Assembly (NCBI GenBank): GCA_014905635.1
Contig: JABVCE010000013.1
Span: 372,001 to 436,000 of the forward strand
Direction: 5' to 3'
DNA: 64,000 nt
Source of the DNA: Scenedesmus sp. PABB004
Taxonomy: Eukaryota
The notes beneath the pieces were generated by a model. It saw only the letters and a program-made list of their open reading frames with translations, was not told where the DNA came from and did no database searches. Below are positions 4,978-61,225 of the stretch, piece after piece. Numbering within the stretch: the first letter of the stretch is position 1; each line of letters opens with the position of its first letter. Made by a program: the position numbers and the translations under genes.

Positions 4978-7595
4978 ATGCACGCCCGCGCCACACGCGC
5001 TCCTCGACCACCTGCTGCTGCGCCGCGAGCTCCGACGACGACGCGGCGCGGCGTCCCGGCGAGGGCAGGCATGCTGGAGGGGCTGAAGAGCATGATGAAG
5101 GTGCGGCGCTGACGCGCGGGCGGCGGCACGGCGGCGGCGCGGCAGCAGCAGCGCCAGCCACTCGCGGTCGGACTGCTGCCGGGTGCGAGGGCTGCAGGCC
5201 AGGCTGCAGCCGCGCCCTCAACTGTCCGTGCCCCTCGGCTCCGCTGCCGTGCCGTCGGCGGCAGCAGCAGCACCAGCGCGCCGCCCTCCGCCCGCTGCCG
5301 CCGCGCGCGCCAGGGCGGCGCCAAGGCGGCGCCCGCCCTGAGCTTCAGCGACACCGCCCCCAGCTGGGACGCGCTGGCCGACATGGTCAAGGTGCGGCAC
5401 GGCGCAGCGCGGCCGAGGCCTGCGGGGCGTGCGCTCGCCGACGCGGCGCGTCGCCGCCCGCAGGCCCAGCAGCTCGAGTTTGGCGTCAGCTTCACCGCGC
5501 CCGACCTCGAGGCGGGGCCGACGAGCCCGCTTTCGCTCAAGCGCACGTTTGGGTCGAGCGAGCCCATCCGCGTGAAGCTCTACCGTGACCACGCGGCGTG
5601 GTGCCCGTACTGCCAGAAGGTCTGGCTGCAGCTCGAGGAGAAGCGCATCCCCTACACCATCGAAAAGGTGGCCGCCGCCGCCGCCACTTGGCCGCCGCCA
5701 GCCCCGCAGACCGCGCCGCCCGACGCGGGCGCGCTGCGCCCAGCGGCCCGCCGGCTCGCCCGTGCCTCGCCCGCCGAGGCCCCGCCGCCGCCGCCGCCGC
5801 CGCCGCCGCGCCGCCGCCGCCGCCGCCGCCGCCAGATCAACATGCGCTGCTACGGCGACAAGCCGCCCTCGTTCCTCGCCAAGGTGCGCCGCCCGCCGCG
5901 CGCGCCGGCGAGGGGGGCCGCCTCCCAGCGCGCGGCGGGCGCTCCGCGCGGCGCGCGGCCAACCAGCGCGCGCCGCCGCGCCGGCAGGTGCCGTCGGGCC
6001 TGCTGCCGGTGCTGGAGCTGGACGGACGCGTGGTGACCGAGTCGGCCGTGATCATGCAGCTGCTGGAGGACTCCTTCCCGGAGCACAAGCGCCTGATGCC
6101 GCAGCCCAACAGCCCGCAGCGCCCCCGCGCCGACGCGCTGATGCGCCTCGAGCGCCGCTTCTTCAGCGACTGGCTCAACTGGCTCTGCAGGCGCGGCGGC
6201 GGCGGTGTGGCGCGGCGCGGTGCGGCAACGGCGGCGGAGGCAGCGGGGCGGGCCTGACGCCGCCGCCGCCGCCGCCGCCGCAGCGGCTGGAACCAGGCGC
6301 AGGCGCAGGTGCAGCTGGAGCGGACGCTCGGCGCGATCTGCACGGAGCTACAGGCCGACGGGGTGGGGCCGCGCGGCGCGCGCCGCAGGGCCCGAGCCGC
6401 CCGCACAGCTTCCTGCGCGGCGGCCCGCGCGGCTGCCCGCTCCGGCCCGCGCGCCGACCGCCCCCCGCCGCCGCCGCGCCACCAGGGCCCCTTTTTCCTG
6501 GGCCGCGACATCAGCCTGGTGGACATCACCTTTGCGCCCATGCTCGAGCGCGCCGCCGCGAGCCTCTGCTACTACAAGGCGCGCGCCGCGCGCGCCGCCC
6601 GCGGCCCGCGCCCCACGGCCCGCGCCCACGGCCCGCAGCCCGCGGCCCGTGGCCGCTTGCGACTGCCGCTCATGTTCTGCCTCTCGGCGCGCGGCCGCTG
6701 CTGCGCAGGGGTACGTGATGCGCGGCAGCGGCAAGTGGCCCGCGCTGGAGGCGTGGTTTGACGCGATGGAGGCGCGGTCGACCTACCTCGGCACCAAGAG
6801 CGACCACTACACCCACGTGAGCCCGCGCGCCGCGCCGCGCCGCACGCCGCGCCCGCTGCGGGCACGCCGCGCGCGCGCCGCGCCGCCCGGCAGCTGCCGA
6901 CTGGTCCCCGCTGCCGCCGCCGCCGCCGCAGTGCCACGACCTGCCGCCGCAGCTCGGCGGCTGCCACATGACGCCCGCGGGCGAGGCCTTTGCCGCGGCG
7001 ATCGACGGCCAGGACGCGGGCAGCTGGCGCCTGCCGCTCGCGCCGCTCAGCGCGACGTCGACGCCCGAGGCGTACTCGCCCGGCGAGAACCCGCCGGTCG
7101 ACCGCCTGGCCGCGGCGGCGCGCCTGGTGGCCAACCACGACGCGGTCTCGCGCTTCGCGCTCCGCGGCGCGGGGCAGCCGGGGCCGCGCCCCGTGTCGGC
7201 GCCGCTCGCCGACCCGAGCGGCGTCGCCGCGCTGCAGCACGAGCGCGCGATGGACGCGGCGCTGCGGCACGTCGCACACGCGCTGCTGGTCGGCGTGGAG
7301 GCGAAGCAGGTGCAGGAGCACGCGCTGCAGGTGCGGCGCGGCGGCGCGGCAAGCGCGCCGCGCGCACGCCGCGCGCTGCCGCCCGCGGCGCCGCGCCGAG
7401 CGCCGCCGCCGCCGCCGCGGCCGGCAGGTCAAGGAGGCGGGCGAGTTTGCGGGCGGCGCGGTCGTGGCGAGCGCCGAGTACCTGCGCGACAGGGTGGGCG
7501 TGCCGCGCGACCTGCGCCTGCCGGCGGCGCGCCAGCTGCGCGCGCACCTCAACTGGCTCATCGACACGCTCGCCGGCGGCTCGCCGCCAAGCTGA
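4978..7595 (+). CDS. Glutathione S-transferase family protein (CPYC active site), probably plastid-targeted
   Basis: [41 protein letters not shown]..|[21 protein letters not shown]-terminal [19 protein letters not shown]; Arg/Ala-rich transit-like N-terminus. Confidence 0.85.
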
Positions 7596-8183
7596 GGGCG
7601 ACACACGGCGTTGGGTCGGGGCGGGTGAGCCGGCGGCGCGTGGCGTGCGCAGGAGCGGCGACCGAGCGAGCGCGGCGGCGACCGAGCGAGGGCAGGGCGG
7701 GGCGCCGCGGGGTTGAGAGCAAGGCCATGCTTGGTTATGGCGAGCGCAACGCGTTCGCTGTCGCTGCGCCTGCCACGTTTGCGCGCTCACGCGTCTGGCG
7801 GCGCAACCGCTGCCGCATCGCCGCCGCTGCTGCTGCGCCCCTGGCCTGCAAGACAGCCGGAGGCTTTCGAAGCATTCCTCTACGCCAGTTCAGGCAGCTC
7901 GCCGCGGCAAGCGGCCCCCCAGCTCAGGCGCACGCTCCGCCGCTGCTGCCGGCACACCGCGCGACCGGCCAGCGCCAGCCCCGCCGCCGTCCCGGCCGCC
8001 GCCAGCCAGCGGCAGCCCCGCCGCCCTCCCGGCCGCCGCCAGCCAGCGGCAGCCCCGCCGCACAGCCAGCCGCCGCCAGCGAGCGGCAGGCTCGCAGTCG
8101 GCCGGCGGCAGCGGCGCATGCCGCCGCGGTCGACGTTTGAGATCGGCGGCGCGTCGCGAGGGACTGGCCAGCGCGGCAGCAGC

Positions 8184-9514
8184 ATGAAGTCCGGCGGCGG
8201 CGTGCTGGTCATCTCCGCGTCGCAGCTGCTCGTCGGCCTGTGTCTGCTCGGTCTGTACGAGGGCTACAAGAAGTGAGCGGCGCGCGCGCCCGCGCAGCGC
8301 GCCGCCGCGCCCTGCGCTGCCGCCCGGCCTCGTGCCAACCACCCGCCGCCGCCGCCGCCGCCGCCGCCGCTGTGTGGTCCGCGGCAGGTACTACTTCAAC
8401 TCGTGAGAGGGCGCGCGAGGGCGCGCGGCGCGCGCGTGGCGCAGCGCGCCACGCCGCTGACCGCCGCGCACGCGCCCACGCCCGGTCGCCCTCTCACGCC
8501 CTCTCTCGCCCTCTCTCGTTCTCTCTCTCGCTCTCTCTCGTCTCACTCTCTCTCGCCCTCTCTCTGGGGCAGCTACATCGCGGAGCTCGATGCGCACGAG
8601 AAGGCGGCGCCCGGCGACGCGGCGGGCGTGGACCTGCGCGTGTCGGCGATGGAGAACCCCATGGACTGGCGCAGCCCCATGGTGCGCCGCCGCCGCGCCA
8701 CCCGCCCGCCCGGCCCACTCGCACACACCAGGCGCTCGCCTGATGGACGCCACCCCTGGCGTCACGCCCCGCCGCTCTCCCGCCTCGCCCCCCGCCCTGA
8801 TGAGCAGGGCTTCACCTACTACCTCGCCATGCTCATAAATATCTTCTCCATCTGCGGCCTCGCCGGCGTGCTCAACGCGCAGCGCGAGCTCGTGCGCGCG
8901 CGCCGCGCGCCGGCGCGCCGCCGGCCCGGGCCGCGTTGCGCGCCACCTTGCTCTCGCCCGCCCGCACGCCCTGACCTGCCCCTCCGCTGTGCACCGCCCC
9001 GCGCGCCGCCTCGCTCTCGCCCGCCAGGTCATCGCGTTCTTCAGCTTCAATGCAGTGCAGTCTGTCGTGAGCTTCCACACCGTCGTCGACATGCTCGTAG
9101 ACGCGGGTGCGCCCCCGCGCCCGCGCTCGCGGCGGGCGGGTGCGGCCGCGCGCCTCCCCGCTCCACGCGCGTCCGCGCCCCGCCCCGACCCCCGCCGCCG
9201 CGGCGGCCGCCGCGCGCGCGGCGCAGGCATCAACTACCGCGGCGAGCCGCCGCAGCTCAGCGGCTACGAGAAGGCCGCCGCCGCGTTCCTGATCATGAAC
9301 TTCGGCCTCGCCGTCGCGGCGACCGTGTTTGCGATGAAGGCCGTCGACGAGGCGCGGCGGCGCGGCGCCCGGCACCCGGGCGCGCGCCGGCGGCGCGCGG
9401 CCCGCACGAACGCGCGCCTCGCTTCGCGCGCAGATCCGCCTGAAGCAGCGAGAGGACTACAGCCGGCTCACCGTGCTGAGCGACACGCTGGCGTTTGAGG
9501 CCGACCACGCGTGA
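8184..9514 (+). CDS. Small ~4-TM membrane protein of unknown function, includes a 15-nt microexon
   Basis: MKSGGGVLVISASQLLVGLCLLGLYEGYK|KYYFN|SYIAE..|GFTYYLAMLINIFSICGLAGVL..|VIAFFSFNAVQ..|..AAFLIMNFGLAVAATVFAM..|IRLKQRE..ADHA*; splice phases are consistent. Confidence 0.7.
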
Positions 9515-9977
9515 CGCCGGCGCGAGCGCGCTGCGCGCGAGGTGCGGTCGGGCGCCGCCCGGCGCGGCGGCAGGCGGCGGCGAGCTCTCGGCGGTGACCG
9601 CGAGTCCGTGGAGAGCGGTCCCGGGCGGCGCGCGTGGCTGCTGTCGGCCGGACGTCGCGCGGCACAACAGATGATGCCGCACCCGCCTGTTCAGCATCCC
9701 CGCAGCCCCGCGCGCTGTCTCCGCGGCCGCGTTCGCAGTTGGCCATCTCACAGGTCCCAGACGCGTGCTGCCCCAGCCCCCGCCAGCCCGCGCACGACGC
9801 TCGGCAGCAGGCCGCGGCCGCCAGGCTGCTCGCAGCGCTCCGCCACGCGCCGCACGCCCCCGCCGTGCCGGCACAGCACGGCCAGACGCCACCGCCAGCC
9901 GTAGCGGTCGCCAGCCGCCGCCCAGGAGCAGGCCCCAGGCGTCGCCGCCCCGCCGACAGCCCGCCGCCGCCGCCGCG

Positions 9978-10744: not shown

Positions 10745-10779
<35 letters not shown>

Positions 10780-11078
10780 TGTGGCGGCGGCGGCGCGCGC
10801 CCGCGCCTGGCAGCCGTCGCGTGCCGTCACGGCGCCGCGCGCGCCCGCGCTCGCCGCCGCCGCGCAGGTGCTGCGCATGCTCGGCGAGGTGCACGAGGCG
10901 GACTTTGCGCGCGCCGGCAGCACCGCGTCGCAGGAGTTCAAGCTGAGCGCGGGGCCGCTGTCCAACCACGTCGGCCCGCTGCCGCACACGCTGGAGCCGC
11001 AGCTGCGCAAGCATGGCCTGCCCACCAAGCTCAACAAGGGCGTGGTGGAGCTGCTGGCGGACCACGTGGTGCGAACCA

Positions 11079-16133: not shown

Positions 16134-18256
16134 ATGCTGCTGCAGCAGGCTGCTGGCGGCGCCGGCCTGCACCAGGCGAGCGGGCGGCGGCGGCGCGCCG
16201 GAGCGCTCGCGGACGGCGCGCGCGAGCAGCGGCGCAGCGCGCGCGCGCCGTCGAGACCGCGCCCGCGCCCCCGCGCCCGCAGCGCGCGGCGCTGTCGGCG
16301 GCTGCGCCGGCGGCCCGCGCGCGCCCGCGCGCATCGCGCCGGGGCGCGGCCGCCGCGCCCGCGGCGCGCGAGCCGGACGCTGCGCAGGCGCCGCGGCCCT
16401 CCGCCGGCGCGCGCCACCCGAGCGCTCAGGAGTGCTTCGACGACATGCTGACCATGCTGGGCGGCCTGGACGACAGGCGCGGGCGCGGCGCGCACGGCGC
16501 GGCCGCCGGGGGCGGCGCGCCCGGCCGCCGACCCGCGCCCGGCAGCCGACCCACGCGCCCGCCGCCGCCCGCGCGCCGCCAGCCGCCTGGTCGGCTACGC
16601 CGGGCAGTGGGCGACCTGGGACGTCAGCGCCGGCGGGGCCGCGCCGCCGGCGCTCATCGACGCGAGCGTCAACATCCGGCTCTGGCGCATGACCGACCGC
16701 GGCGCGCAGACGCTGAAGCAGAGCAACCTCTATCAGCGCCCCGCCAAGATGGCGGGTGCGCGGCACCCGCGCCCGCGCCCGCGCCCGTGCCCGCGCACGC
16801 GCACGCGCACGCGCGGCCAGCGCCCGCCCGGCACACGGGGGCGCCCGCGCCGCCCGCGCCGCCGCGTCCACCGCCGCGCCTCGCGTCAGGCCCCAGCACG
16901 CGCTTCCTGCCGTATCTGTCAGGCAACACAATGGAGGGCCGGGCCGACGGCTACGGGCTGCGCGAGTGGAGCTTCGGCCCCGACAGCGACATGCTCAGCG
17001 TGGGTTTAGGGTTTCCTAACCCCGCCCCGCGGGCCCCGCGCGGCGCCCCGCTCGGACAGGGGCTGGCCGGCGCCTCGCAGGGCGCGGGGTGCAGGTGGCG
17101 CGCCGCGCCCACGCCCGCCGCGCGCCGCCCGCCGCCGCCGCCGCGGCCGCAGCCCGACGCGTCGGCCTGGCGCGCCGCGCCCGGCGCGGGCGAGCGCAGC
17201 ATGCGCGTGCTGAGCGTGCCCGGGCGCGCGGCGACGATCGTCAACGGCGCGCTGCCGTCGGGGTTTGAGGCGGGCCACGTGCCGCCGATCTGGGTGCTCG
17301 AGTTCATCGTCAAGGTGCGGCGGCACGGCGGCGTGGGCGTGGGCGTGGGAGGGCGTTGGCTGGGCTCGAGCTCGGCAGCCCAGCCCCGCCCAGGCGCAGC
17401 ACCGCGCCGCCGGCGCGGGCGCGCCGCGGCCGGACCCGCGCCGCGCAGGAGCCCGGCAGCGACGCGCGGCGCTGGGCGAGCATGGCCTGGTACGAGCACG
17501 GGCGCCTCGCGGTCAGCCGGTCCATCAACGAGGACGCCGCGGCGCTGCCGGACGACCTCGAGGCCCGGTCGATCGACCCCGCCGCGTTTGTGTTTGCGCC
17601 GCGGCGCGACGGGTGCGGCGCACGCGCGCGCAGGCGTGCGGCGGCGGCGCGCGCGGCGCTCCGAACAGCAGGGACCCTGGTCGCCCCCGACTCCGCACCG
17701 CGCGCGCCGCGCGCGCCGCAGCGAGCTCGGCGGCATCGAGCGCCACATGGCGAGCGGCGCGGCGAGCCGCGCGGGCGCCGCCACGGCGTTCACCTACGGC
17801 GCCGACGGCCGCCTCGCGGTCGAGAGCGCGGCCTGCGCCTGGTCGCTCGGCGCCGCGGCCGCGTTTGCGCCCGGCGCGCCCGCGGCCGCGCCCGCCGCGG
17901 GCGGCCTCGCGGAGCAGGACTTTCCGGACTGGTCGTACAGCCGCGTGCCGCGCGACCTGCCCGCGCTCATCGCCGCCGGCCTGCCGCGCGTCACGTTTGA
18001 GGCCGGCACCGTGCTCGGGTGCGCCGCCGCCGACGCCGCCGCGCCGGCGGGCTCGCGTGCAAGCGCGCGCTGGCCCCCTGCCCGCCGCGCGTGCGCGCCC
18101 GCGACACGACGGCCGCGTGCGGCGCCGCGCAGGGACGGCTCGGTGTCCCGCTGGCTGCTCACGTACGAGACGGGCGGGCACCGCCTGCTGGAGTCGGCGG
18201 TGTTTGAGCACTATCCAGCCGCGGGCGGCGGCGGCAGCGGCGAGGCCAGCAGGTGA
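16134..18256 (+). CDS. Putative DUF3598/BFA1-like beta-barrel protein, paralogue B
   Basis: Transit-like N-terminus; ECFDDMLTMLGGL..GYAGQWATWD..EWSFGPDSDMLS|PDASAW..TIVNGALP..WVLEFIVK|..FPDWSYSRVP..VTFEAGTVL|..SRWLLTY..AVFEHY; TGTAA at 18351 downstream. Confidence 0.6.
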
Positions 18257-21638: not shown

Positions 21639-23165
21639 GCGCCCGCGCCCGCGCCCGCGCCCGCCGCCGCACCGCGCGAGCGCCTGCGCGCCCTCGAGCA
21701 CGCCCGGCGCCATCGGCGTGCGCCGCCCCGCGGCCGCGAGGATGCCGGCGCGGCCGTCGGGCGGCGGCAGCGGGACATACAGCACCTTGTCGAGCCGCCC
21801 CGGGCGCAGCAGCGCGGGGTCGATCATGTCGGGCCGGTTGGTCGCGGCGACGACGTACACGCCCTGCGGCGGCGCGGCACAGCGCGCACAGCGCGCGGGG
21901 CGCTCAGCGCGCGCGAGGCGGGCGGCGCGCGCGCCGGCAGCCCGCACAGCACCCCGCCCGACTAACGCGCGCGGCCTGCCCCCGCCGCCGCCGCGGCGTG
22001 GGCGGGGCCCGCGCCCCGCCGCGCGCGTCCCGCGCGCGCCCTGCGCCGCACCCCCATCCGCCCCCCCCCTCCACACACACACCGCCCCTCAGCAGCTCGG
22101 GGCCCTGCAGCGCAGCGCGGCCGGCCGCCACACACACACCGCCCCTGCCCCGCGCCCGCGCACCAGGCGCGCGTCGATGCCGTCGAGCTCGGTGAGCAGC
22201 TGGTTGACGAGGCGCTCGGCGGGCGCGTTGTTGTCGGAGCCGCGGCGCGGCGCGAGCGCGTCCATCTCGTCGAAGAAGAGCACGCACGGGTGCGCCGCGC
22301 GCGCGCGCGAGAAGAGCGCCCGCACCGCGCGCTCGCTCTCGCCGACGTACTTGTTCAGCAGCTCGGGGCCCTGCAGCGCAGCGCGGCCGGCCGGCGCCGC
22401 GCGTGGCGGTTGGCGGGCGGGCGTGCGGCGGCGGGCGGGCGGGCGGCGACGTGTGGGTTCGCGGCGGCGTGCGTGGCGCGCGGCGAGAGGCGCGGGGCGG
22501 CGCGGGGCGGCGGGCACGGGCGCCGGCGGCGGGCGGCGCGGCGGGCGGCGCGTGCGGGCGGGCGGCGCGCGCGGCGCGGCGCGCGGCGGGCGGCGCGCAG
22601 GGGGTGTCGCGCCTTGATGCTTATGAAGTTGGCCCCGCTCTCCGCGGCGACGGCCTTGGCGAGCAGCGTCTTGCCGCACCCGGGCGGGCCGTGCAGCAGC
22701 ACGCCGCCGCCCGCGGCGAGGCCCATCGCCGCAAACGCCTCGGGGTGCGCGATCGGCTGCGAGACCGCGAACGAGAGCTCCTCGCGCACCTGGGCGCGCG
22801 CGGCGCGCGGGGGCCCGTGAGCGTGCGGCGCGCGGCGCGCGGGGCGCGCGGCGAGCGGGCGGCGGCCGCCCCAGCCACGGCGGCGCACCTCCTCGAGCGA
22901 GCCCACGTCGTCCCACGTCGCGTCGGGCTTGGTGGTGAAGCCCTCGCGCCGCACGCTCGGCTGCACCTTGGGCAGCGCCGCCTCAAAGTCGGCCATGCTG
23001 ATGGCGAGCCCCGACAGCTCCGCGTGCGTGAGCGCGCCGCCGCCCAGGCGGCGCACCGCGGGCCCCGCGGCGGCGGCGGCGCCCGCCGCCGGCACGAGCG
23101 CGACCGCCGCGCCTGCCGCTGCTGCGGCCGGCGGCGCTGCTAGCGCTCCTGCTGCTGGTCCGGCA

Positions 23166-23219
<54 letters not shown>

Positions 23220-26049
23220 GCCGCTGCGCCGTCCGTGTCCGCAGCTGCGTCCGCCTCTGCTGCGGTCGCGGCCGCGCCCGCGCCCGCGCCGTCTGCGCCC
23301 GCGTCCGCGCCCTCCAGCGGCGGCAGCGCCTGCGTCCGCGCCGCCGCCTCGCGCGCCGCCTGCGCGCCGTCGAGCTCGCTGAAGATGCGGCTCACCGCGA
23401 CCGCGGCCGCCTCCTTGGTGAGCGCCGCGAGGTCGGCGCCGACAAAGCCGGGCGTGCGGCGCGCGATGGCGCCAAAGTCAAAGCCGCCCTGCAGCCGCAG
23501 GTTGCGCGTGAGCACGCCCAGGATCTGGCGCCGCGCCGCCTCGGTCGGGATGCCGAGCGCGATCTCGCGGTCAAACCGCCCCGCGCGGCGCAGCGCGGGG
23601 TCGAGCGCGTCGGGGCGGTTCGTCGCGCCGATGACGACCACGTGCGGCCGCGGGCGCGCCTCGTCCGCCGCGTCGGCACCGCCGGCCGCGCCGCCGCCGC
23701 CGGGCGTGCCGTCGCCGGGCGCGCCGTCGCCGGGCGCGCCGTCGCCGGCCGCGGCGGCCGCCGCAGCCGCGGCCGCCGAGCCCGCCGCGGGCGGCGGCGG
23801 CGCGGAGAGGTCGTCCATGCACGTGAGCATCTGCGCGACGATGCGGCGCTCCATCTCGCGCTGCGCGGTGTCGCGCTTGGGCGCGATGGCGTCGATCTCG
23901 TCGATGAAGATGATCGCCGGCGCCGCGTCGACCGCCTCCTGCGCGCGGTGCGGTGCGGGTTTGGGGGCGCGCGGGCGCGCGGGGCGCGGGCGTGGGTGGG
24001 CAGTTTGGGGCGCACTGCAGTGCGCGCCGGCGGCGGCCGGGCGGCCGAGCCGCGCGCGGCGCGGCGCCGGCGCGCCTGGAATAGCTGGCGCAGCCGTGCC
24101 TCGCTCTCGCCGCTCATGCCGCTGACGACCTCGGGCGCGCTCACGCGCAGGAAGGGCACGCCGCACTCGCACGCGATCGCGTGCGCGAGCGCCGTCTTGC
24201 CGCACCCGGGCGGGCCGTGCAGCAGCACGCCGCGCGGCGGCTCCACGCCCAGCCACCCGTACACCTGCGGCGCGCGCGCGCGGGCGCGGGGGGCCCCCGT
24301 CGGCGCCGGGCGCGCGCATCTGTCGCCGCGCCGCGTTTTGCTCGTTTGAACGCGGGCGCTGTCGTTAATGCAACAATAACAATAAAAATAACAATAACAC
24401 CCACCCCACCTCGGGGTGCTTGAGCGGGTACTCGATGAGCTCCTTGATGTCCGCCAGCACCTCCTCCACGCCGCCCAGGTCGGCGTAGCGCAGCGCGCGC
24501 GGCTCTGCGGCGCGCGGCGCGCGGCGCCCGTGAGCCGGCACGGGCGGCGGCGGCGCGCGGCGGCGCGCGGCGGCGGGGCGCGGCGGGGCGGGGCGCGGCG
24601 GGGGCGCGCGCGCGCCCGCACCCGAGATCGCGGAGCCACCCTTGCGGCTGCCGCCGCCTGCGGCGCCGGCGCCGCCGGCGCCTGCGCCGCCGGGCGCCGC
24701 GCTCACGCGCCGGGCCCTTTTGCTCACCGCGCGGCTGCGGGGGCGGCGGCGGCGGGCGCGGCGGCGCGGGCGCGGCGGCGTCAGCACGGGCGCCCTGCGC
24801 GCCGCCCCGGCTGCCGTGTTGTGTGGTGGTGTGCTGTCGGGCTGCCGCGCCTGGCTACCTGTCTCTGCCAATGCCCGCCTCCTCGGCAGACCTGGTCTTC
24901 TTCTGCTTGCCAGCGGCCGGCGTCGCCGCTGCCGCCTCGCCGCCGCCGCCGCCCGCAGTGCCTGCTGCAGGGGGCGGCCCCGAGGCCGCTGACGTCGACG
25001 GGCCGCCGCCCGCTGCCGCTGCCGCCGCTGCGGCCGCTGCCGCCGCAGCGGCCGCTGCCGCCGCCGGGGCTGCGCCTGCAGCGCCCGGCGGCCTGGCCGG
25101 CACCGCGCCGCCCTTGGCCGCCTTGGCGGCCGCCGCGGCGGCCCGGGCGGCCTTCTCCGCCGCCAGCGCGCGCGCCGCCGCCGCGGCGACGACGTGCGGC
25201 GGCGCGAACGCGGGCGGCGCGTCGGGGTCGGGCTCGCTGCTCGCGCCGCTGCCGCTGCCGTCGCCGTCGCTCTCGCTGCCGCTGCCGTCGCTGCTGCTGC
25301 CGGGCGCCGCCGCCGCCTTGCTGGCACTGTACATGTGGAGCAGCGAGCTGTTCAGCCCCGTGCCGCCGCCGCCGTGGGCCGGCGCGGGCGTGCCTGCGGC
25401 CGCTGCCGCTGCAGCGCCGCTCGTGCCCGCTGCCAGCGCGGCCGCAGCGTCGGGGTCGAGGTCGCCACCGCCGCCGCGCCGGCCGGCGCCGCCGTCGCTG
25501 CCGCTGTCGGCGCCGCCGTCCTCGCCCTCGTCGGAGCTGTCGGAGCCGCCGTGCGCGGCAGCCGCCGCAGCTGCGCGCGCCGCCACGTGCTGGCTCTCCC
25601 GCGCCTGCGCGGCGGCCGCCGGGCAGGGGGCCTGGCGGTCAGGGGGCCGGCGGCGGTCAGGGGGCCGACGGGGGGCAGCCGGCGTGCTGGCGGCCGGCGC
25701 CCGCTGTCGACAGCGTCGCCACGGCGCGGCGGCCGGCGCGCGGCGGTCGCCGGCGCGCGGCGGTCGCCGGCGCGCCGCGGCGCCCCACCTGCAGCGCCAG
25801 CTCGGGCTTGGCCACCCCGCGCGCCTGCACCGCGGCCACGGCCTTGGCGACCATCTGGCGCAGCGCCGCGACCTGCCGCCGGCCGTACTCCTTGTAGCTG
25901 CGCCGCAGGTGCTCCACGACGTCGTCCAGCTCGCTGATGTCGTGGTTCATCGCATACTGCTCCACGCGCGGCACCAGGTGCCGGTCCAGCAAGTACAGGC
26001 CGCCGCCGGCGCCGGCGCCGCCGCCGGGCGTGCCCTTCTTCTTGCCCAT
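21054..26049 (-). CDS. NVL: Type II AAA+ ATPase NVL/Rix7 (CDC48C), 60S biogenesis
   Basis: N-terminal ..[17 protein letters not shown].. domain; two AAA modules with [37 protein letters not shown]..DPALxRx[13 protein letters not shown]. Confidence 0.92.
22089..22393. repeat. 39-bp direct repeat (22089-22127 and 22355-22393) in the NVL gene
   Basis: tcagcagctcggggccctgcagcgcagcgcggccggccg appears twice. Confidence 0.9.
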
Positions 26050-26349: not shown

Positions 26350-28747
26350 ATGGAGTTCGGCGGCGTGGCCATGCCGCCCGAGCTGAGGCCGTACAGGCAC
26401 CAGGTCGAGGTGCGCCCGCCCGCCCCGCCCAGCGGCGCGCCCGCACCGCCCGCGGGCGGCGCGCCACGCCTCGGCGTCCGCCGGCGCAGCGGCCCGGGCC
26501 GCGCCGGCGCCGGCAGGGCGCCCGCCGGCGCGGCGCGGCGGGCGGCGCAGCAGCAGCGAGCGCGGCGGCGCCCGCCCCGGCGCCCAGCGCCGCCCGCGCC
26601 GCCCCGCCGCAGGCCTACGCGCACGCGAAGCTGCAGCGCTTCGCGTACGCCTTCGCGCGGCGGCTCAACCCGGGCCTCACGAAGGAGCAGGTCGACTATG
26701 TCGCCGGCGAGACGCTGCAGGCGATGGCGGCGCTGGCGGAGCCGATGCCCGCGCCGCCCCAGCAGAACCTGCGCCTCGTGCTGCGCCACGACTGCCTGTG
26801 AGCCTGGCGCCGCGGCGCGGGCGCGCGCGCGCCGCGCCGCGCCGCGCCGGCGGTTGCGGCGGTTGGCCGGGCGCGAGCACGCCGCCGAGCGCACTCGCCG
26901 CCGCCGCCGCCGCGGCGCCGCGCGCGCAGGAGCTCCGGCTGCGGCGACGCGGGGTGCGTGCTGTGCCAGTACAACCCGTCGCGCATCTGCAAGCGCAACC
27001 TCAAGCAGAAGTACCTCATCGACGACCACCTGCGCGCCAAGTGCGGCGCGGGGCTGCGCGTTGAGGTGGTCGACGAGAACGGCGCGTGCACGGCCGACCC
27101 GCTGCCCGACATGCAGCTCGAGGTGCGGCACCGCGCCCGCGCCTGTGCGGCGCGGCGCGGCACAGCGCCTGCTGCGCGGCGCGCGGCGCCCGCCCCCCGC
27201 CCGCCGGCCCCGCCCGCGCGCGCCGCGGCGCGCGTTGCGAGCCCCCGCCGCTGCACGCGCACGCGCGCCCGGCCGCAGGTGCACGTGCTCAACGGCGAGA
27301 AGTACAAGGAGGTCTGCCCCGACAACACGCTGCTCAGCCCGGCGCAGCTGCGCGCGTGCATCATCGCGCCCAACGCCAAGAAGCCGCTGCTCAAGCGCGA
27401 GAGCGCGCTCGGCGTGTTGAGCGAGGACGCGCGCATGTTCCTGCCCGTCGAGGTGCGCCGCCGCCGTCGCCGCCGCCGCCGCCGCCGCCGGCAGCAGCAG
27501 CGGGCCCGGCAGGGCAGCGGGCCCGGCAGGGCAGCGGGCCCGGCAGCCATGCGCCCGCGCACGACCCCGGCCCCCCTCACGTGCCGCGCGCGCCGCCGCC
27601 GCCGCCGCCGTCGCCGCCGCCGCGCCGCCGCGCCGCGCAGCAAGGCCAGGCGCCGCTGTCGGAGCTGCAGTGCACCACGAGCAGCGAGGCGCTGCTCGCG
27701 GGCAAGGCGCCGACGTTCCGCCTGCTCGTCTGGGCGGCCGACCGCTCCGGCGCGCACCTGCCGCACGTGACGTACGTCGTGAGCGAGTCGTTTGTCGTCG
27801 CGACCAAGCGCGTGAAGCACGCGATCAAGAGCGACATCCCCTCCATCGGCGACCACGTGAGCAAGCTCGTGCACATCGGCAAGGCGACCGTCGACAAGCT
27901 GCAGGACCTGCGCCAGGCCGCGGCGGAGGAGAACATGGACGTCGACCTGCCCGACGGCCTCGTCCGCGTCGACAAGGCGCGCACGCCGCGCCGCGCCGCG
28001 CGGCCGCGCTGACGGGCTGGTCGCTGCCGGGCCGCGCCGCCGCCGGCGCCGCGCGGGCGCCGCCGCCGCCGCCGCCGCCGCGCCGCCGCGCCGCCGCGCC
28101 GCCGCGCCGCCGCGCGCGCCGCAGGTGGGGCAGTTCCGGCAGCTCGTCGAGCTGAGCGAGCGGTCGAGCGACCTCAAGCACAAGCTGCGCCACCTGCTCA
28201 AGCTCTCGCCCGAGAAGTGGGACGAGGTCACGCAGCACGCGCTGAGCGCGGTCGTGCCCGACTTCCGGCCGCGCGCGTGGTGGTGCGCCGGCATCCAGGG
28301 CGCGCTGCTCTTCCCGACCAAGAACGGCGCGGTGCTCGCGGAGAACGCGCTCGCGTACGTCGGGCGCGACCCCGGCAGCGGCGCGGAGGCGGTGACGCCG
28401 ATCCAGCAGGTCGACCCCATGCTCTTCAACCTGCTGCCCAAGCTCAAGCAGCAGGCGATGCAGGACTGGTTTGCGCCGGGGCACACCGGCTGGGCGGTCT
28501 ACTGGCACGACCCGGCCGACCCGCTCGCGCAGCAGATGCAGCCGGGGCCGAGCGGGCCGCCGAGCTACCTCGCGCAGCTGCCGCCGGGCATCACCCAGGC
28601 GGCGGCGTTCGCGGGCGCCGCGGCGGCGGCCGGCGGCGACGGCCTCGCGCCGGGCGGGCTGCAGGCCGTCGGCAACGGCCTGGCCGCGCCGGCCGGCGCG
28701 GCGGCGCAGGCGCAGCTGCAGGCGCAGCTGCAGGCGCAGCTGCAGGC

Positions 28748-35664: not shown

Positions 35665-36344
35665 GCCGGCCGCCCCGCGCGCGCGCGCGCGCGCGCGCGG
35701 GCGCGGCACGCACCTGCACGAATTTCTGGAGGATGCGCACCGCGCCCGGCGCGAGCTGCTCGCCGAGGCGCTTCTTCGCGTCGGGCGGCAGGTAGGAGCC
35801 CTGCAGCTGCATGATGAGCTTGATGCGGATCGGCGCGGGCGCCGTCTCCGCCACCATCTGGCGCACGCGCTCGCCCTGCCGCCGGCGGTGCGGGCGGCGC
35901 GCGGCGGCGTCGGCGGCGGCGGCGCCGCTGGCGGCCGCCGGCGCACCCCAGGGCACCCGGCCGGCGTCACCAGCGGCGCGCGCCCGCTGCTGCTTGCGCC
36001 GCCGCCCGCACCTGCATGCGCTCCTTTGCGCCCCTCACGGCGCGCAGCTTGAGCTGCTGCTCGGCGAACGCCGCGTACTTGTCCCGGATGTCGGGCGAGT
36101 CCATGCTGCAGGCGCCACCTGCGGAGAGACGGCGATGGCTCGCCCACGCCCCCCACGCCGCCCCGCCCGCGCGCCACGCCGCGCGGGCTGCGGCGCGGCG
36201 GTGCCCCTGCGGCCTCTGGCGCCGCCTGCGCGCTCCCGGGGGCGCCGCGCGCGCACCCTCCGCGCCGGGCGCGTGCACCGCGAGGCAGGCGAGCACCACC
36301 AGCGCGCCGGCGACGCCCGCGCCCACGCCCGGGCGCGCCCGCAT
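33525..36344 (-). CDS. Secreted leishmanolysin/GP63-like metallopeptidase (M8) with C-terminal EGF-like domain
   Basis: Signal peptide (..GALVVLACLAVHA..); ADMVLFVT..GALAY..C..D..GRPIAAGMNIC; HESVHAL|GFS (HExxHxxGF); SHFKQR..HELM; ITEFTLTLLESTGW; C-terminal CRNGMCSNGRCVCDMEFTGPDC. Confidence 0.88.
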
Positions 36345-48172: not shown

Positions 48173-50654
48173 ATGGCGCGCCGGCCGCGGGGCGGGCCGC
48201 AGTGCGCGCTGCTGGCGGTGGTGCTGCTCCTGGCCGGCGCGGGGTCCGCGATCGGCGACCACGGTGCGCTGGCCGGGGGGTCTTCATGCAGCGCCCGCCT
48301 GGCGCGCGCTGGGGCCCCGCGCGGCCCGGCCGGGCGGTCGACCGTGGCTTCCCCAGGCTGACGGCGGTCCCGACCCGCAGGCGCCGGGCGCGGACTGGCG
48401 GGCGTGGCGCACGCGCTGCGCGCAGGCGCGGAGCACGTGTGGGCGCACCGCCCGCGCGCGCTGCTGGGCGCCGCGGCGGCCGATGCAACCGGTCCGCGCG
48501 ACGCGGACGCCGCGCGGGCGGGCGCCGCGGCGGTGGCGCAGCAGTGCTACTGGGATGGCGCGAGCCAGAGCTGCGACGCCGATGATGCCGTGAACATCAT
48601 GTACGCCATCCGCTCGCGCCCCGCGTCGGCGTACCTGCGGTGAGAGCGAGGGGGCCGCGCGGGGAGGCGACGCAGCGGCGGCACCGGCGGCGGCGGGTGC
48701 CACCGGAGCTGCTGCTGCTGCCGTCGCTGCCGGCGCGCGCCCGCGTCAGCGCGCCCCGCCCTGCCACCGAGCCCGCGCCCCCGCCGCCCCCCTCGTCCCC
48801 GCCGCCCGGCCGGCCGCCAGGTACCTGCTGATGACGTACGACCGCGAGTCGGCGTGCGGCGCGCACGGCAGCGCGGCCGCGTGCAACGCGGACAAGGCAC
48901 ACCGCTGCATCTACCTTGATGACATCCTCAGCATCATAGAGGCAGACGGCGCGCCCGACGACGGCGCGCCCGGCGCCGGCGGCGGCGCCGCGAGCGCGTT
49001 TTCGGCGGCGCCCGACTGGCGCGGCGACCGCGAGGTCGCGGCCGCGCCGGGCGGCGGGGCAGAGCCGGAGCAGGCGTCGATCGCGGCGTGGTGGGCGGCG
49101 GTGCGGGCGGACGGCGCCGGCGGCGCCGCCGCGGCCCAGGAGGCGCTCGCGGGGCGGCTGCAGGCGCAGCAGCGCGAGCTGCTCGAGCTGCTCGGCGGCT
49201 CGCCGTCGCGCGCGGCGCAGCCGCAGCGCCTGTTCATGGCCGACGCGGCGCCGCCGCCGGCGGCGAGGCAGCAGCCGCAGCAGGCGAGGCCCGCGCCGGG
49301 CAAGGCGGCCGCGCCGGGCAAGGCGGCGCCGCCGCCGGGCAAGGCGGCGCCGCCGCCGGGCAAGGCGGCGTCGCGGTGGCCCCAAATCATGTGCACCAGC
49401 ACCGACCTGCTTGAGAACTACATCTTCACGCGCTCCGCGTACAGCAACCCGCTGCAGGCCCCGCTCGCGATGCACTGCCCCGGCTCGCGCGCGCACGCGC
49501 TGCTCGCCTGCATGCGCCAGCCCAACCTGGGTGCGGCGCCGCGGCCGCAGCAACCCCGCGCCCGGGCGCCGCGGGCGGGCGCCGGCGGGCGCCGCCGCCG
49601 CCGCCGCCGGCGCGCTGACGCGCCGCGCCCGCCCGCGCCGCCGCCGCCGCCGCAGCCGCGTGCCGCAAGGCGCCCGACTGCGTGGTCGTGCCGGGCGCGC
49701 CGGGCGGCGCCAAGCAGGAGATGTGCGTGAGCCGCGCCTTCAAGGCCCTCGACGCCGCAGGCGAGTGGCGCCGCCGCGCGGCACGCGCGCGCCGTCGCGG
49801 ACGTCACTGGGACGCGCGGCCGCCCCTTGGCTCGTGCCTGGCTCGACTTTCCCGGCGCTCACCCCCCCCCCCCCACACACACACACAGGCATGAAGAAAT
49901 TTACGTTTGACGTCGCCCTGGGCGAGCCCTCGGCGATCGGCGCGTGCGACGGCGCGTGCTGGATGCGGCAGGCGCTGCTCTGCAACCGCACGGCGAGCGC
50001 GGACGCGTGCGCCGCGCTCAGCTTCTGCCGCCGCACCGGTGCCGGGGCGTGCGCGCCGCGGCTGTACATGCAGGACGACTTTGGCAGCAGCGTCCAGGAG
50101 TACATGGTGCGGGGCGCTGCCTGCCTGCGCGTGCCACGCGGCGCGGCACGGCGTGTGCGCCGCCATGCGCGCGCCGTGCGCGGGACCGCGGCGGGCGCGC
50201 GCCCCGCTCGGCGCCCGGCGCCCGACGCCCCCGACGCCGCCGCCCGCCGCGCCGCGCCGCGCCGCAGGGCGAGTGCGTGGACGTTGACAACCGGCGCGAC
50301 TGCGAGGCGCTGCGGCTGCGGCTGGTCAACAAGGGCAGCTACGCGCGCTGGGCGATGGCGCCGGCCGCGACGCAGCGCTGCGGCGTCGCGAGCATCAACG
50401 GCCTGCTCGGCGGCCGCGGCCGCGCGGCGCAGCGCGCGCCGGCGAACGAGCGCGGCGGCGGGGCGGTGGTCATTGCCGCGATGGGCGCGCGCGAGCAGCA
50501 GGCGGCCGAGGTCGCGGCCGCGGCCGCGGCTGCCGCGGCGGCGGCCAACGCGGCCAAGCTCGTGTCGGGGCGCGGGCCGGCGGTGCTGCGGCAGATTTAC
50601 TTTTCGGACGGCGCCGCGGCGCCTCAGTACCGGCAGCCGGGCGCCGGCGGCTGA
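48173..50654 (+). CDS. Secreted cysteine-rich protein, unknown family, paralogue 2
   Basis: Signal peptide (..CALLAVVLLLAGAGSA); QCYWDGASQSC..|RYLLMTYDRESACGAHGSAAACNADKAHRCIY..IGACDGACWMRQALLC..CAALSFC. Confidence 0.75.
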
Positions 50655-57158: not shown

Positions 57159-57209
<51 letters not shown>

Positions 57210-59142
57210 GCGGCGGCGCGCGCGCGCGCGCACCGGAGCCCTCGACCTGCAGCGTCGAGATGAGGTCCGCCTGCTCCGCCACGCTGGCCGAGGCCGAGTC
57301 GAGCGACGCGAGCGCGGAGCTCAGCTGGGCCTGCGCGGGCGCGGGTGCGGGTGCGGTCAGCGGCCGCTGCGCCGGGGTCGGGACTGCCCAGCCGTGCGCC
57401 CGCGTCCGGGGCGCCCGCCGCGCGCCGCGCCGCCCGCTCCGCACCTGCGCGGCCGCGAGCTCCGCCGCCTTGGCGTCCGCCTCGTCGCCCAGCGAGCTGA
57501 GCGCGGCGGCCTGCTGCGAGACCTGCGCCGACGCCTCCTCGAGCATGCGCCGCACCTCGCCCGCCTCCGCCTGCGGCGCGCGGGGCGCGGGCCGCGGGGC
57601 GCCGCGCCTCTGGGTGGGTGGCCGCGGCCCGGCCGCGACGCGCGTCCGCGCGCGCGCGCGCCCCGCGCCGCCGCGGCGGCCGCGCCGCGCGCGCCTGCGC
57701 GGCAAACTTGGCGGCGCGCTCCGCGTCGAGCAGCTCCGCGCTCGCGGCGGCCTCCTCCTTCATCGCGTCGACCAGCCGCTTCTCGGCAGCGAGCGCGCGG
57801 CCCGCGAGCTCCGACGCGCGCGTCGCGGCCGCGCGCTCCTGCTGCTCCAGCTCCAGCAGCTGCGCGCTCGCGGCCGCGCTGAGCGCGGCCTCCTCCTTGA
57901 GCCGCGCCACGAGCGCCTGCTCCGCCTCGAGCGCCGCGCGCGCCGCGCCCGCCTGGGCCTTGAGCGACTCCACGGCCGAGCGCTCCGCGGCGAGCTTGTC
58001 GTCCAGCGCCGCCTGCGCGCGCCCGCGGCGGCGCCGGCACCGGCGGCGGCGGCGGCGGCGCTCAGGGCGCGCGGCCGCCGCCGAGGCGCAGCGGCGCGGC
58101 GCGGCGCGCCCCGCGCGGCCAGCCACGCGCCGCGCGCCGCGCGCGCCGCGCGCCTCGCTGTCGCGCTTCTGCGCCGCGACGACGCCGGCGATGCCGCAGC
58201 CGAGCAGCAGGCCCAGCGCGGCGCCGGGGTTGACAAAGTCTGCGGTCTCGAGCTCGGCAGAGTCGCCCATGGACGGAGACTGCGCGCGCGCGGGGTTGGG
58301 CGGCGGCGGTTGGAGAGGAGGGGGAGCATGGCGGCGTGCGCGCGTCGGTCGGCCGCGCGGCGCGCGGCGGCGCCGCGAGCGCGCGCGCGGGCGCGCGGGC
58401 CCGGCCGGCCGCCGCGCACCGTGGCGCTCGCGACCGCCAGCGCGGCGCGGCGCTGCGCCGCCTGTGCCTCGGCCTGCGCCGCCTGCAGCTGCGCCTGCGC
58501 GCTCGCGAGCTGGCTCTGGAGGTCGCCGAGGCGCTGGCGGTCGGCGCTCGTGAGCTCGGCGCGGGGCTTGGCCTGCAGCGCCTCGTACTCCTGCGGCGCC
58601 GCGCGCGGCGCGTGCCTGACCGCAGCGCGGCGCCCCGCGGATCGCGGCGCCATCGCGCCCACCGCGCGCGGCGCGGCGCGGCGCGGCGCGCCGCGCCGCA
58701 CCCGCAGCGCGGGCGACGCCGTGAGCGCGGGCAGGGCGCGCGCGCCGCCGGTGCGGGTGGCGATGATCGCCTCCATCTCCGCCGCGGCGTCGCGGCTCGC
58801 GGTGCCGAGGTGCGCCGTGTTGGGGCGCTCGTACGGCGCGGCGCCCGCCGGCAGCGTCTGCCGGGCGGCGGCGGCGTGCGCGGCGGCCGCGGCGGCGCGG
58901 AGCATTGGCCCCCGATCCGCCAGGACGCGCCGGCGGCGGGCGGCGGCGGCGCGCAGCCGCCGCGCCGAGCGCCGCACCAGCAGCAGCGACGCCAGCCCGG
59001 CAGCGGCGCCCGCGGCGGCAGCCTGCCAGGCGGGCGCGGAGCCGGGGCGCGCAGCGGAGGCGCGCACGGCCAGGCGGCGCGAGAGGCGCCCCGGGGCGCG
59101 CGCGGGCGCGCCCGGGCGGGCGGGGCGGGTGCAGAGCTGCAT
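54875..59142 (-). CDS. Plastid membrane-anchored long coiled-coil protein (MFP1-like architecture)
   Basis: Transit peptide (..RRLAVRASA), hydrophobic stretch ending ..LPAGA, TM segment GAALGLLLGCGIAGVVAA, then many Ala/Glu/Leu heptad exons; ends ..GKGFGGGK*. Confidence 0.65.
57072..57103 (+). repeat. Degenerate interstitial TTTAGGG-type telomeric array in an intron
   Basis: AGGG TTCAGGG TCGAGGG TTTAGGG TTCGGGG heptamer phasing. Confidence 0.55.
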
Positions 59143-59581
59143 GCTGCTGGGCGAATTGCGGCGCCCAGGCGCGCGCGTTCGATGGGGCGGGGTGCGCGAG
59201 GTGAGAGAGAGGCGACAGAGCGCGCGGACCAGCGCCACCTGGAGGCTGGCGGGGTCTACGCGAGCGGACGGGCCTGACTGACATTGACGCGTGGCCGGCC
59301 TCGCCCAGCCGGCTTCGCCCTCCCTCTCACGATCTCGCGTCGACGTCGCACGTCGCCATCGCCGCCCAGCTCGCTCGCCGGCCGATCTGCGCACGCCGCG
59401 TGCGGAGCCGCTGCCGTCCCGCCCCGCACGCGCCGCTGCTTGCCCGAGGGCCCGCTGATCGCTGCCCGCCATGCCGGCGGCCCCGCGCCGCGCGCCGTGA
59501 GCCTGCGGGCGCGGCGCAGCCGTCGCGCTCGCCGGCCGGCAGCGCCGGCGCCGCTGCCGCTGCTGCCCGGCGGCCGCCGCG

Positions 59582-61225
59582 ATGCGGCGGCGGGGCGCGC
59601 CCCCGGCGCGCCCGCCTGACGCCGGCGCCGGCGGGCCCGGCGGCGGCGCGGGGCCGAGCAACGCGCCGCCGCCGGCCTCGGCGGCGGCGCCCGGCGCGCC
59701 GCCGCCGCCGCCGCCGCCGCCGCCCGGCGGGCTGCGCGTCGGCTGCCTGCTCGAGTTTGGCGACGCGCGCGTGGAGGGCGCGTACCAGGCGTACGTCTAC
59801 AAGCTGCAGCAGACGGCGGACGTCTGCCTCGTCGTGGTCAACCTCTTTGCCGTCGCGGTCGCGTTTGTCAAGCAGCACGTGATGCCCGCCGGCGCGGGCC
59901 CCGTCACGACCGCGCTCTGCCTGCTGAGCGGCGGGCAGAGCGCGCTGCTGCTCGCGCTGCTGCTCGCGTGGCCGGGCGCGTACGCGCGGCACCGCGCCGC
60001 GATCGTGTGCGGGACGCGGCTATACCGCCTCGCCGTGTGGCTCGCGTTCCTGCGAGACCCCTACCCGCCGCGCCTCTTCCGGCACAACCTCTCGCTCCGC
60101 CTCTTCCTGCTCTCCCCCGCGGGCGGCAACGTGTGGATGGCCCTGTTCTACCCGCTGCCGCTGCCGCTGCACCTCGCGCTGCTCGCGCTCTCGAGCGCCG
60201 CCGCGACGTGGCGCAGCGCCGCGCTCGCCGCGCGGCTCGCCGCGCTCGAGGTGCCGCCCGAGGCGCTCGCGCACGCGCACCGCCAGCTCAGCCGCTTCTC
60301 CAGGCGCGCGGCCGCGGCGCGGCGGCCTGCGGCGGCGGCCTGCGGCGGCGGCGGCCGCCAGCGGCGGCACGCGCGCGCAGGGCCAGCCGCCCGACCCCCT
60401 CCCTCCCCTCTCACGCCTCGCCCGCCGCCCCCCCCTCCCCCTCTCGCCGCCGCAGGCTGTTTGAGATGCCCAGCGGGCGCCTGCTCGCGCGCTGGCCGCC
60501 GCCGCCGCTCGGCCCCGAGGACCAGCTGTGGTGCATGTACGCGTTTGTCGCCATCGTGTACGGCCTGCTGCTGCCGCTGATGCTGCTGCTCATCAAGGAG
60601 GTGCACTTCAGAGGTGACACACACGCCGCGCAGCGCCCCGGCGCCCCGCCGCGGCCGCGCGGCGGCGGCCCCGGCCGCGACCCTCGGCGGCGCCCGGCGC
60701 GAACGCCGCCCCCGCCGCCCCCGCCGCGCCGCGCCGGCCGCAGTGCGCTTCCTGCAGTGCCTGCGCCCCGTGGTCGCGGGGCGCGCGATGGACGCGCCGC
60801 GGCGCGCGCTGTACAGCGTGACGACGTCGGCCGTGTTCCTGACCGTGACCATGGTCCCGTGCGCGTGGACGCTCGTGCAGCTCGCGGCGCGCTTCCTCGC
60901 GTCGTCGCAGCGCGCGCTGCGCGCCGACGCGCTGCTGCTCATGGCCACCGTGCTGGGGCTGGAGGTCTTCATGCGCTTCTGGCTGCTCGCCGTGCTGCAG
61001 CTGCTGCTGCAGCGCGTCGTGCGCCCGGGCCTGCTGTGGCTGCTGCTCCGCGCGTCGGGGCGGCCGTCGGCGGCGCCCGCGGCGGCGGCGGTGGCGCCGG
61101 CGGCGGCGGCGTCGGCGTCGGGGGGCGCGGCCGCCGCGGGCGGCGGGGCGCTCGCGCGCCCGGGCGGCGCCGGCGGCGCGGCGGGGCGCGTGCCGGCGCG
61201 GCCGGGCGGGCCGGCGCTGCGCTGA
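59582..61225 (+). CDS. Multi-pass membrane protein of unknown function
   Basis: LEFGDARVEGAYQAY followed by hydrophobic helices (VCLVVVNLFAVAVAFV, ALLLALLLAW, MYAFVAIVYGLLLPLMLLLI, VFLTVTMVPCAW, LLLMATVLGLEVF); 2 introns. Confidence 0.6.

Follow-up and report, generated by a model that had tools for sequence, protein, structure and literature searches.

GC-AG introns, which keep the AG acceptor and replace the GT donor with GC, are spliced as U2-type introns in animals and plants; PMC3167603 describes their compensation by stronger remaining positions of the 5' splice site. Their average share in plants is 1.2%, at 36.3% GC (PMC6310983). Enrichment in GC-AG introns is already published for GC-rich algae. 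The prasinophyte Micromonas pusilla (65.9% GC) has 496 major non-canonical sites in 8,831 introns, or 5.6%, by annotation figures (PMC6310983); among pelagophytes, GC-AG introns amount to 14-17% in Aureococcus and ~14% in Pelagomonas, which the authors credit to high GC content (bioRxiv 10.1101/2024.10.30.620910); and in Emiliania huxleyi GC-AG accounts for 56% of the 241 junctions that were mapped (PMC4028052). Across kingdoms, splice-site GC content is correlated with genomic GC content (PMC7072748). The literature searched contained no account of GC-AG introns in Sphaeropleales, and the 15 best genus-name matches listed were likewise silent on GC-AG.

The 64-kb stretch of Scenedesmus sp. 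PABB004 DNA that was analysed here (the window) resembles each of these systems in part. Its GC-AG share, ~10% (11 of 107 to 12 of 120 introns, depending on the analysis), is about ten times the ~1% norm, as the original prediction had held, and the chance of finding at least 11 GC-AG introns among 107 at a rate of 1.2% is 8e-8. It shares with animal and plant GC-AG introns the donor, the acceptor and the stronger remainder of the 5' splice site (PMC3167603), but the share is ~10% rather than ~1.2%, and the compensating consensus is the local AG/G-GCG, not GCAAGT. As PMC4028052 describes for E. huxleyi, the genome is GC-rich, the AG acceptor is kept and the donor is often GC; GC is the majority donor in E. 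huxleyi, however, whereas GT still accounts for ~90% here. The pelagophytes, which are stramenopiles, have a similar GC-AG fraction but only 0.19-0.92 introns per gene, and M. pusilla, also a GC-rich green alga, is a prasinophyte with less than one intron per gene; the alga analysed here is intron-rich. The predicted proteins of the window find their best matches in Sphaeropleales. A Pfam search covered 150 of 154 periodicity segments, and an Rfam search of the whole window at gathering thresholds returned no matches. Exons and introns are short and numerous, the median length of the supported introns being 128 nt. The excess of GC-AG introns goes together with extreme composition, as had also been proposed: G+C lies between 75 and 82% in every 4-kb bin, and the interiors of introns contain 45% C, 41% G and 6.8% T.

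At all 11 positions that had been listed as GC donors (Table 1), exonic AG is followed by GC; ten of these donors read GCGCG, and the one at 49761 reads GCGAG. The predicted acceptor is CAG in every case. At nine sites the GC3 codon-periodicity signal ends no more than 1 nt from where the exon was claimed to end; at the other two it ends early, by 7 nt at 49761 and by 12 nt at 57694.

Table 1. GC-AG introns of the window. Exon letters are in lower case and a slash marks the exon-intron boundary; scan scores are those of the GC-AG junction and of the best GT-AG junction; the last column is the loss of parse score (nats) when GC donors are banned around the site.
Position	Strand	Intron	Length (nt)	Boundary	Gene	Homolog scan	Loss
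6191..6283	+	GC-AG	93	cag/GCGCGG...CAG	GST-like	first of 835 combinations (362.7; GT-AG 326.0); gapless in 10/10 homologs	
6579..6708	+	GC-AG	130	aag/GCGCGC...CAG	GST-like, same gene	first of 281 (294.3; GT-AG 173.0); gapless in 10/10	
9352..9433	+	predicted GC-AG	82	gag/GCGCGG	small membrane protein	parser only	13.3
16477..16582	+	predicted GC-AG	106	cag/GCGCGG		parser only	13.6
22371..22612	-	GC-AG	242	aag/GCGCGA...CAG	NVL/Rix7-like ATPase, D2 AAA domain	first of 645 (360.9; GT-AG 284.4); gapless in 8/8	
23113..23289	-	possible 12th GC-AG		acg/GCGCGG	NVL linker region	parser	
23939..24075	-	GC-AG	137	cag/GCGCGC...CAG	NVL/Rix7-like, D1 AAA domain	first of 361 (340.9; GT-AG 314.0); gapless in 7/8	
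27977..28124	+	GC-AG	148	aag/GCGCGC...CAG	CSE family	first of 576 (774.1; GT-AG 750.1); gapless in 10/10	
49761..49888	+	predicted GC-AG	128	cag/GCGAGT (sole non-GCGCG donor)		parser only	13.9
57571..57694	-	predicted GC-AG	124	cag/GCGCGC	long coiled-coil protein	parser only	17.4
58013..58153	-	predicted GC-AG	141	gag/GCGCGC	coiled-coil, same gene as 57694	parser only	9.3
60304..60455	+	GC-AG	152	cag/GCGCGC...CAG	multi-pass membrane protein	first of 202; best GT-AG 43 lower	

The most direct evidence for these introns comes from a scan blind to splice motifs, in which alignment to homologous proteins is the only basis for scoring a junction and the candidates are all donor positions combined with AG acceptors within 60 nt. 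(Gapped tblastn of the homologs passed straight through stop-poor introns; enumeration of junctions was used instead.) The claimed GC donor ranks first at all six sites checked in this way, with margins over the runner-up of 6-14 at 6191, 6579, 22612, 24075 and 27977; the margin is only 1.0 at 60304, where the runner-up is also a GC donor and GT is absent from -45 to +127. The scan was applied to 29 junctions and, at a margin of at least 4, resolved 19 of them: five as GC, all 14 others as GT and none as any other dinucleotide. Individual sites add detail. The acceptor of the 6191 intron has no in-frame GT donor, Pfam AAA profile coordinates are continuous over the 22612 junction, and an in-frame stop codon lies at +33 of the 27977 intron. 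The best GT-AG alternative at 24075, an in-frame GTGCGC located 60 nt downstream, would add 20 low-complexity residues with a codon score of -11.3. At six of the 11 sites, protein homologs thus indirectly place the splice junction right at the GC and leave the interval out of the coding sequence. The possible twelfth intron at 23289 on the reverse strand falls in a variable linker, where its scan margin is 0.6 and switching off this single site costs the parse only 0.5 nats. In the same gene, exon 23290-23938 was suspected of hiding a further intron, but the segment is just an insertion rich in Gly and Asp (score 613.3 with no intron, 618.4 for the best model with one).

The remaining sites depend on a self-written, unsupervised Viterbi/EM gene parser whose training data are the window only. 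Its 107 well-supported introns comprise 92 with GT and 15 with GC donors; the latter include ten of the claimed sites, and the eleventh, 27977, is present in the raw parse. When all 16 donor dinucleotides are allowed to compete from a uniform prior, with EM run to convergence, the 120 resulting introns have 97 GT, 12 GC and six CT donors and one each of five others, and the 12 GC donors are precisely the 11 claimed sites and 23289. (The earlier count was roughly 130 introns; well-supported introns number 107-120 here.) Of the six CT introns, four run past a stop codon into the following gene, apparently because genes were merged, and two come from predictions that are short or antisense. In pairwise runs, in which a single dinucleotide is admitted beside GT, decoys gather about as many donors as GC does (CG 15, CC 15 and CA 14, against 15) and, by a shift of 1-3 nt, can replace true GC donors; the dinucleotides were therefore judged by total score and in the 16-way competition rather than by counts, and only these two measures set GC apart. 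The total parse score is 4634.6 with GT alone, 4824.7 with the best decoy and 4965.7 with GC as the second donor. Banning GC donors within 400 nt around each claimed site costs the parse 8.8-35.7 nats. On these sequence grounds the observation holds, with six of the 11 GC-AG introns supported by homology and the other five predicted by the parser.

What finds no support is the claim that these GC donors are without a compensating match. AG occupies -2/-1 in all 11 GC donors and in 35 of the 92 that have GT (Fisher p = 6.7e-5), a comparison that is biased because the original prediction and the parser both prefer consensus sites. In the subset verified by the motif-blind homolog scan, the full AG+GCG consensus is present in 6 of 6 GC donors and 6 of 14 GT donors (p = 0.024). 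The local consensus GCG at +3 to +5 is found in 10 of 11 GC donors and 67 of 92 GT donors, with G at +3 in 91 of the 92. The GC donors, reading GCGCG(G/C/A) or GCGAGT, accordingly follow the local U2-type consensus, GTGCG; none of the 11 resembles the U12-type 5' motif.

These GC-AG introns are probably of the ordinary U2 type, spliced by the major spliceosome of a very GC-rich, intron-rich chlorophycean alga and generated by GC pressure on unchanged splicing. C at +2 would cost one base pair with U1 and would be tolerated only where exonic AG and intronic G at +3 and +5 keep the remaining contacts; AT-to-GC pressure, whether from mutation bias or from biased gene conversion, would turn T to C at the sole GT position at which the spliceosome accepts a transition, and could so bring about the tenfold excess, with selection against GC donors staying at roughly the level of an ordinary genome. 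The quantitative side of this proposal can be approached through a mutation-selection estimate. The intronic C/T ratio of the window is 6.65 (8.96 in the G_G context) and falls to 0.115 at donor +2, a penalty against C of S ~4.1-4.4, compared with a plant average of S = 3.85. Combining the plant penalty with the window's intronic C/T predicts 7.9-16% GC-AG introns, on the assumptions that plant introns are strand-symmetric in composition and that a single selection coefficient applies throughout; ~10% is observed. For M. pusilla the same estimate predicts 4.0%, compared with 5.6% annotated. Since the GC donors fit the local consensus elsewhere and the estimate predicts 8-16%, a variant U1 or U6 would not be needed, nor would a change in U1C. 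GC pressure on an ordinary splicing apparatus is the simplest explanation of the excess, in line with reports on other GC-rich algae. Composition does not suffice for every lineage, because E. huxleyi, with a genomic GC content of ~65%, has a GC-AG share of 56%, far above what the same estimate allows.

A change in the splicing machinery itself, through a variant U1 5' end, U6, U1C or Prp8, by which this lineage would recognize GC nearly as well as GT, appears unlikely. In its favor, the frequency is about ten times the norm, the E. huxleyi share exceeds any compositional expectation, and the local GTGCG consensus mismatches canonical U1 at +4 and +6 by the U1 pairing rule; moreover, for the GA donors of Eurytemora and Oikopleura a variant isoform of U1 has been put forward (PMC7072748). 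But confinement of GC donors to full-consensus contexts is the prediction of an unchanged, mismatch-penalizing U1, the frequency fits the plant-average penalty, and the two heptamers are not used alike: among sense-strand occurrences in modelled transcripts, AG/GCGCG serves as a donor at 10 of 34, as against 28 of 38 for AG/GTGCG. It is equally doubtful that the fit to composition is a coincidence and that this lineage recognizes 5' splice sites through a modified component (a U1 isoform, U1C or a U5/U6 contact) for which AG/GCGCG is a second legitimate donor class; if that were true, some GC donors might be regulatory, a candidate being 24075 with its downstream in-frame GTGCGC.

A different kind of objection, improbable to about the same degree, is that several of the five sites known from the parser (9352, 16477, 49761, 57694 and 58153) are mis-modelled and that GC-AG introns really make up closer to 5%. 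The parser does make false GC calls elsewhere (three of its 15 GC calls, and many more in the raw parse, fall on antisense strands), the gains at these sites are modest (9-17 nats), and two of them have potential GT competitors, a weak in-frame GTGGCT at +27 of 58153 and in-frame donors of the GTCG type upstream of 9352. Yet the alternative GT donors contain rare bases, such as C at +3, in-frame GT is absent near 57694, all five sites survive the competition among 16 dinucleotides, and all six sites that could be checked by homology were confirmed; even six GC-AG introns among ~110 would still amount to ~5%. Scarcely any credence is due to the notion that the genome really has GT, with C at +2 arising from faulty assembly or base calling or representing a minor allele: relatives do show GT at two sites, but eleven independent T-to-C errors would be required, each hitting the second base of an intron and each in a full-consensus donor, and other dinucleotides show no comparable excess.

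Returning to GC pressure on ordinary splicing, which remains the preferred reading, the orthologous positions in relatives suggest a direction of change. A comparison of orthologous introns, of the kind suggested with the prediction, points to it at 27977 and 60304, where relatives imply an intron that starts with GT and the window has GC. At 27977, the unspliced ORF proteins of five of five diverging relatives continue after ...VDK with Val (GTN), while the window would continue with Ala (GCG). At 60304, 10 of 11 relatives' unspliced ORF proteins imply GT after ...RFS-R (a stop from TGA, Tyr or Cys), and the window's own read-through residues are R-R. At these two sites, then, the GC donors would be derived from GT donors. 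At the DNA level, no orthologous donor was found for the CSE-family exon in 14 metagenome loci of relatives: L001 and L005 lack an intron at this position and the other loci are split elsewhere, and the parser run on L001 and L002 yielded no further evidence on that donor.

The window supplies a new chlorophycean point, at the ~80% G+C extreme, on the plot of GC-AG frequency against genome composition. It favors the view that composition is enough with the spliceosome unchanged, and it raises no new question. The practical consequence is that gene finders restricted to GT would mis-model about one intron in ten in such genomes. The database proteins of relatives already exhibit a related failure: most of those whose sequence departs at the junctions of 27977 and 60304 read into the intron or stop there, so that unspliced gene calls truncate these proteins.

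About 10% of the introns predicted in the window (11 of 107 to 12 of 120) are of the GC-AG type. The excess put forward in the original prediction is thus confirmed: at a rate of 1.2%, the probability of at least 11 GC-AG introns among 107 is 8e-8. At all 11 sites that had been claimed, the GC follows an exonic AG; the intron opens with GCGCG at ten of them and with GCGAG at 49761. This reading alone is weak proof of a junction, since the window has 68 copies of the AGGCGCG heptamer, both strands counted, and GC makes up 22% of all its dinucleotides. On the sense strand of the modelled transcripts, 24 AG|GCGCG heptamers (13 exonic, 11 intronic) go unused and 10 are used. The heptamer by itself is insufficient to define a GC donor.

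For four genes, each junction was scored solely by peptide alignment to 5-10 homologs, every donor position, of any dinucleotide, being enumerated with every AG acceptor within 60 nt. The claimed GC donor ranks first at each site for which scores are tabulated. The junction at 27977 is gap-free in 10/10 homolog alignments; the margin at 60304 is small because the second-ranked donor is also a GC (419.2 vs 420.2). Of the 29 predicted junctions of these genes, 19 are resolved at a margin of at least 4 (10 fall below the coverage or margin needed), as 14 GT, 5 GC and no other dinucleotide; 5/19 is no estimate of frequency, the genes having been picked because they hold claimed sites. The intron 23939-24075 (-) also contains a consensus donor in frame, gca|GTGCGC at 24015; this site is 60 nt downstream of the GC one, and its use would add 20 Ala/Arg/Pro-rich residues to the conserved D1 AAA helix. 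The homologs score it lower than the GC donor (314.0 vs 340.9), but it could serve for alternative 5' splicing. A candidate twelfth GC-AG intron, 23113-23289 (-), starts at acg|GCGCGG in the variable linker of NVL, with no AG at the exon end; it is predicted by the parser described next, and the homolog scan gives no decision there.

Predicted GC donors in the window, with top GC and best GT-AG scores from the homolog scan
Donor (strand)	Gene	Combinations	GC donor	Best GT-AG
6191 (+)	GST-like	835	362.7	326.0
6579 (+)	GST-like	281	294.3	173.0
9352 (+)				
16477 (+)				
22612 (-)	NVL/Rix7-like	645	360.9	284.4
23289 (-), candidate	NVL/Rix7-like			
24075 (-)	NVL/Rix7-like	361	340.9	314.0
27977 (+)	CSE-family	576	774.1	750.1
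49761 (+)				
57694 (-)				
58153 (-)				
60304 (+)	multi-pass membrane protein	202	420.2	377.2

A Viterbi gene parser, which scores codons by log-odds and splice sites by weight matrices for donors and acceptors and tracks the frame across introns, was trained by EM with the window as sole training data. Run with GT and GC donors, it yields 107 well-supported introns, 92 GT and 15 GC; ten claimed sites are among the 15, and the eleventh is present in the raw parse. Three of the 15 are artefacts, antisense to + strand genes; another, at 35711 (-), switches to TG when all 16 donor dinucleotides compete; and 23289 (-) is an extra candidate outside the claimed list. In pairwise runs (GT plus one other dinucleotide) decoys are called about as often as GC, so that intron counts alone do not discriminate; the total parse score is 4965.7 with GC as second donor, 4824.7 with the best decoy and 4634.6 with GT alone. 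Sixteen-way competition under a uniform prior gives 120 introns: 97 GT, 12 GC, 6 CT and 1 each of five others. Its GC set is all 11 claimed sites plus 23289 (-) and nothing else. Four of the six CT introns run past a stop codon and end in the following gene; such donors, invented just upstream of an in-frame TGA (e.g., 7592, 29726 and 50651 (+)), fuse neighbouring genes across 588-996 nt, and are rejected as a parser artefact. These fusing calls show close same-strand gene packing. If GC donors are disallowed up to 400 nt from a given site, the parse loses 8.8-35.7 nats, depending on the site. The parser, frame logic and poor nearby GT alternatives together point to the predicted GC donors at 9352, 16477, 49761, 57694 and 58153.

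In all three kingdoms, genomic GC is reported to correlate with the GC content of splice sites (PMC7072748), and G+C is 75-82% throughout this 64-kb window. The C/T ratio is 6.65 in intron interiors, 8.96 between two G's and 0.115 at donor +2, which corresponds to a scaled penalty against C of ~4.1-4.4. The reported plant average (1.2% GC-AG, 98.7% GT-AG, 36.3% GC; PMC6310983) gives a penalty of 3.85 if composition is strand-symmetric. Applied to the window, in what is a sketch and no fitted model, 3.85 predicts 7.9-16% GC-AG, the range being set by the neutral ratio used, and the link to GC pressure is thereby supported by the roughly 10% seen. The same penalty gives an expected 4.0% for Micromonas pusilla (65.9% GC), where 5.6% are annotated. 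GC pressure acting on an unchanged spliceosome would suffice for the excess; the variant U1, U6 or U1C that had been proposed is unnecessary. The E. huxleyi genome has a G+C of about 65%. Its GC-AG share, reported as 56% of 241 junctions (PMC4028052), is far above the expectation from a penalty of 3.85, and other factors may operate there. A literature search found no publication pairing "GC-AG" with "Sphaeropleales". The value of the excess is mainly practical, for annotation.

Among the window's 92 GT donors, G stands at -1 in 76, at +3 in 91 and at +5 in 87, and C stands at +4 in 69. By this local rule the GC donors are not weak, and the contention that they lack compensation is contradicted. 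AG at -2/-1 is found at 11/11 GC donors vs 35/92 GT donors (p = 6.7e-5, with selection bias); in the subset verified blind to motif, the full AG+GCG consensus is found at 6/6 vs 6/14 (p = 0.024), and AG alone at 6/6 vs 10/14 (p = 0.21, not significant). Such richness in consensus is the compensation for U1 mismatch at +2 reported for GC 5' splice sites (PMC3167603). Donor use on the sense strand of modelled transcripts, 10/34 for AG|GCGCG and 28/38 for AG|GTGCG by labels that come from our own parser and are partly circular, suggests that GC is still a poorer donor signal than GT.

Among the database relatives are several ORF calls made without splicing, which extend into the intron. At 27977 (phase 0) all five relatives that diverge after ...VDK continue with Val (GTN), where the window has Ala (GCG); P0223, a sixth diverging match, lacks the ...VDK exon end and is uninformative on the donor. 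At 60304 (phase 2), ...RFS-R is followed by an immediate stop in five relatives (TGA, as in GTGAG), Tyr in two and Cys in three, GT being implied in all ten; one has His, which is compatible with GC, and the window reads Arg-Arg, from GCGCGC. These read-through residues place introns at identical positions in relatives, which are mostly GT at the two sites where the window is GC. Judged from these residues, the GC state looks derived. In DNA-level comparison, the 27977-28124 intron is absent from the CSE-family gene of two metagenome relatives (L001:3342/3343 and L005:3409/3410; G+C 75% and 48%) and present in five other relatives, so that its presence varies. Many of the proteins related to window genes 27641-28124 and 59756-60455 (P0159-P0163, P0167, P0265-P0280) are unspliced ORF calls, reading into the intron or ending at the TGA created by AG|GTGAG; deposited proteins are consequently shortened or carry intron-encoded tails.

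Codon-position periodicity marks many short exons on both strands. Their translations (150 of 154 periodicity segments scanned for protein families) match ordinary eukaryotic families: a GST-like protein, ribosomal protein P0, a two-domain AAA ATPase with a nucleolin-binding domain (NVL/Rix7-like), an ABC ATPase, a leishmanolysin-like protease and an NGP1-type GTPase. Rfam families were found nowhere in the window. The top protein matches for three genes are to Chlorophyceae, chiefly Sphaeropleales (Scenedesmus sp., 92%; Tetradesmus, 85%; Raphidocelis, 85-86%; Monoraphidium, 83%), marking the source as an extremely GC-rich chlorophycean alga. Triplet runs of the (CCG)n/(GCC)n type are frequent in the introns, with long ones in the GST-like gene at 5690-5835 and 6240-6283 (+).
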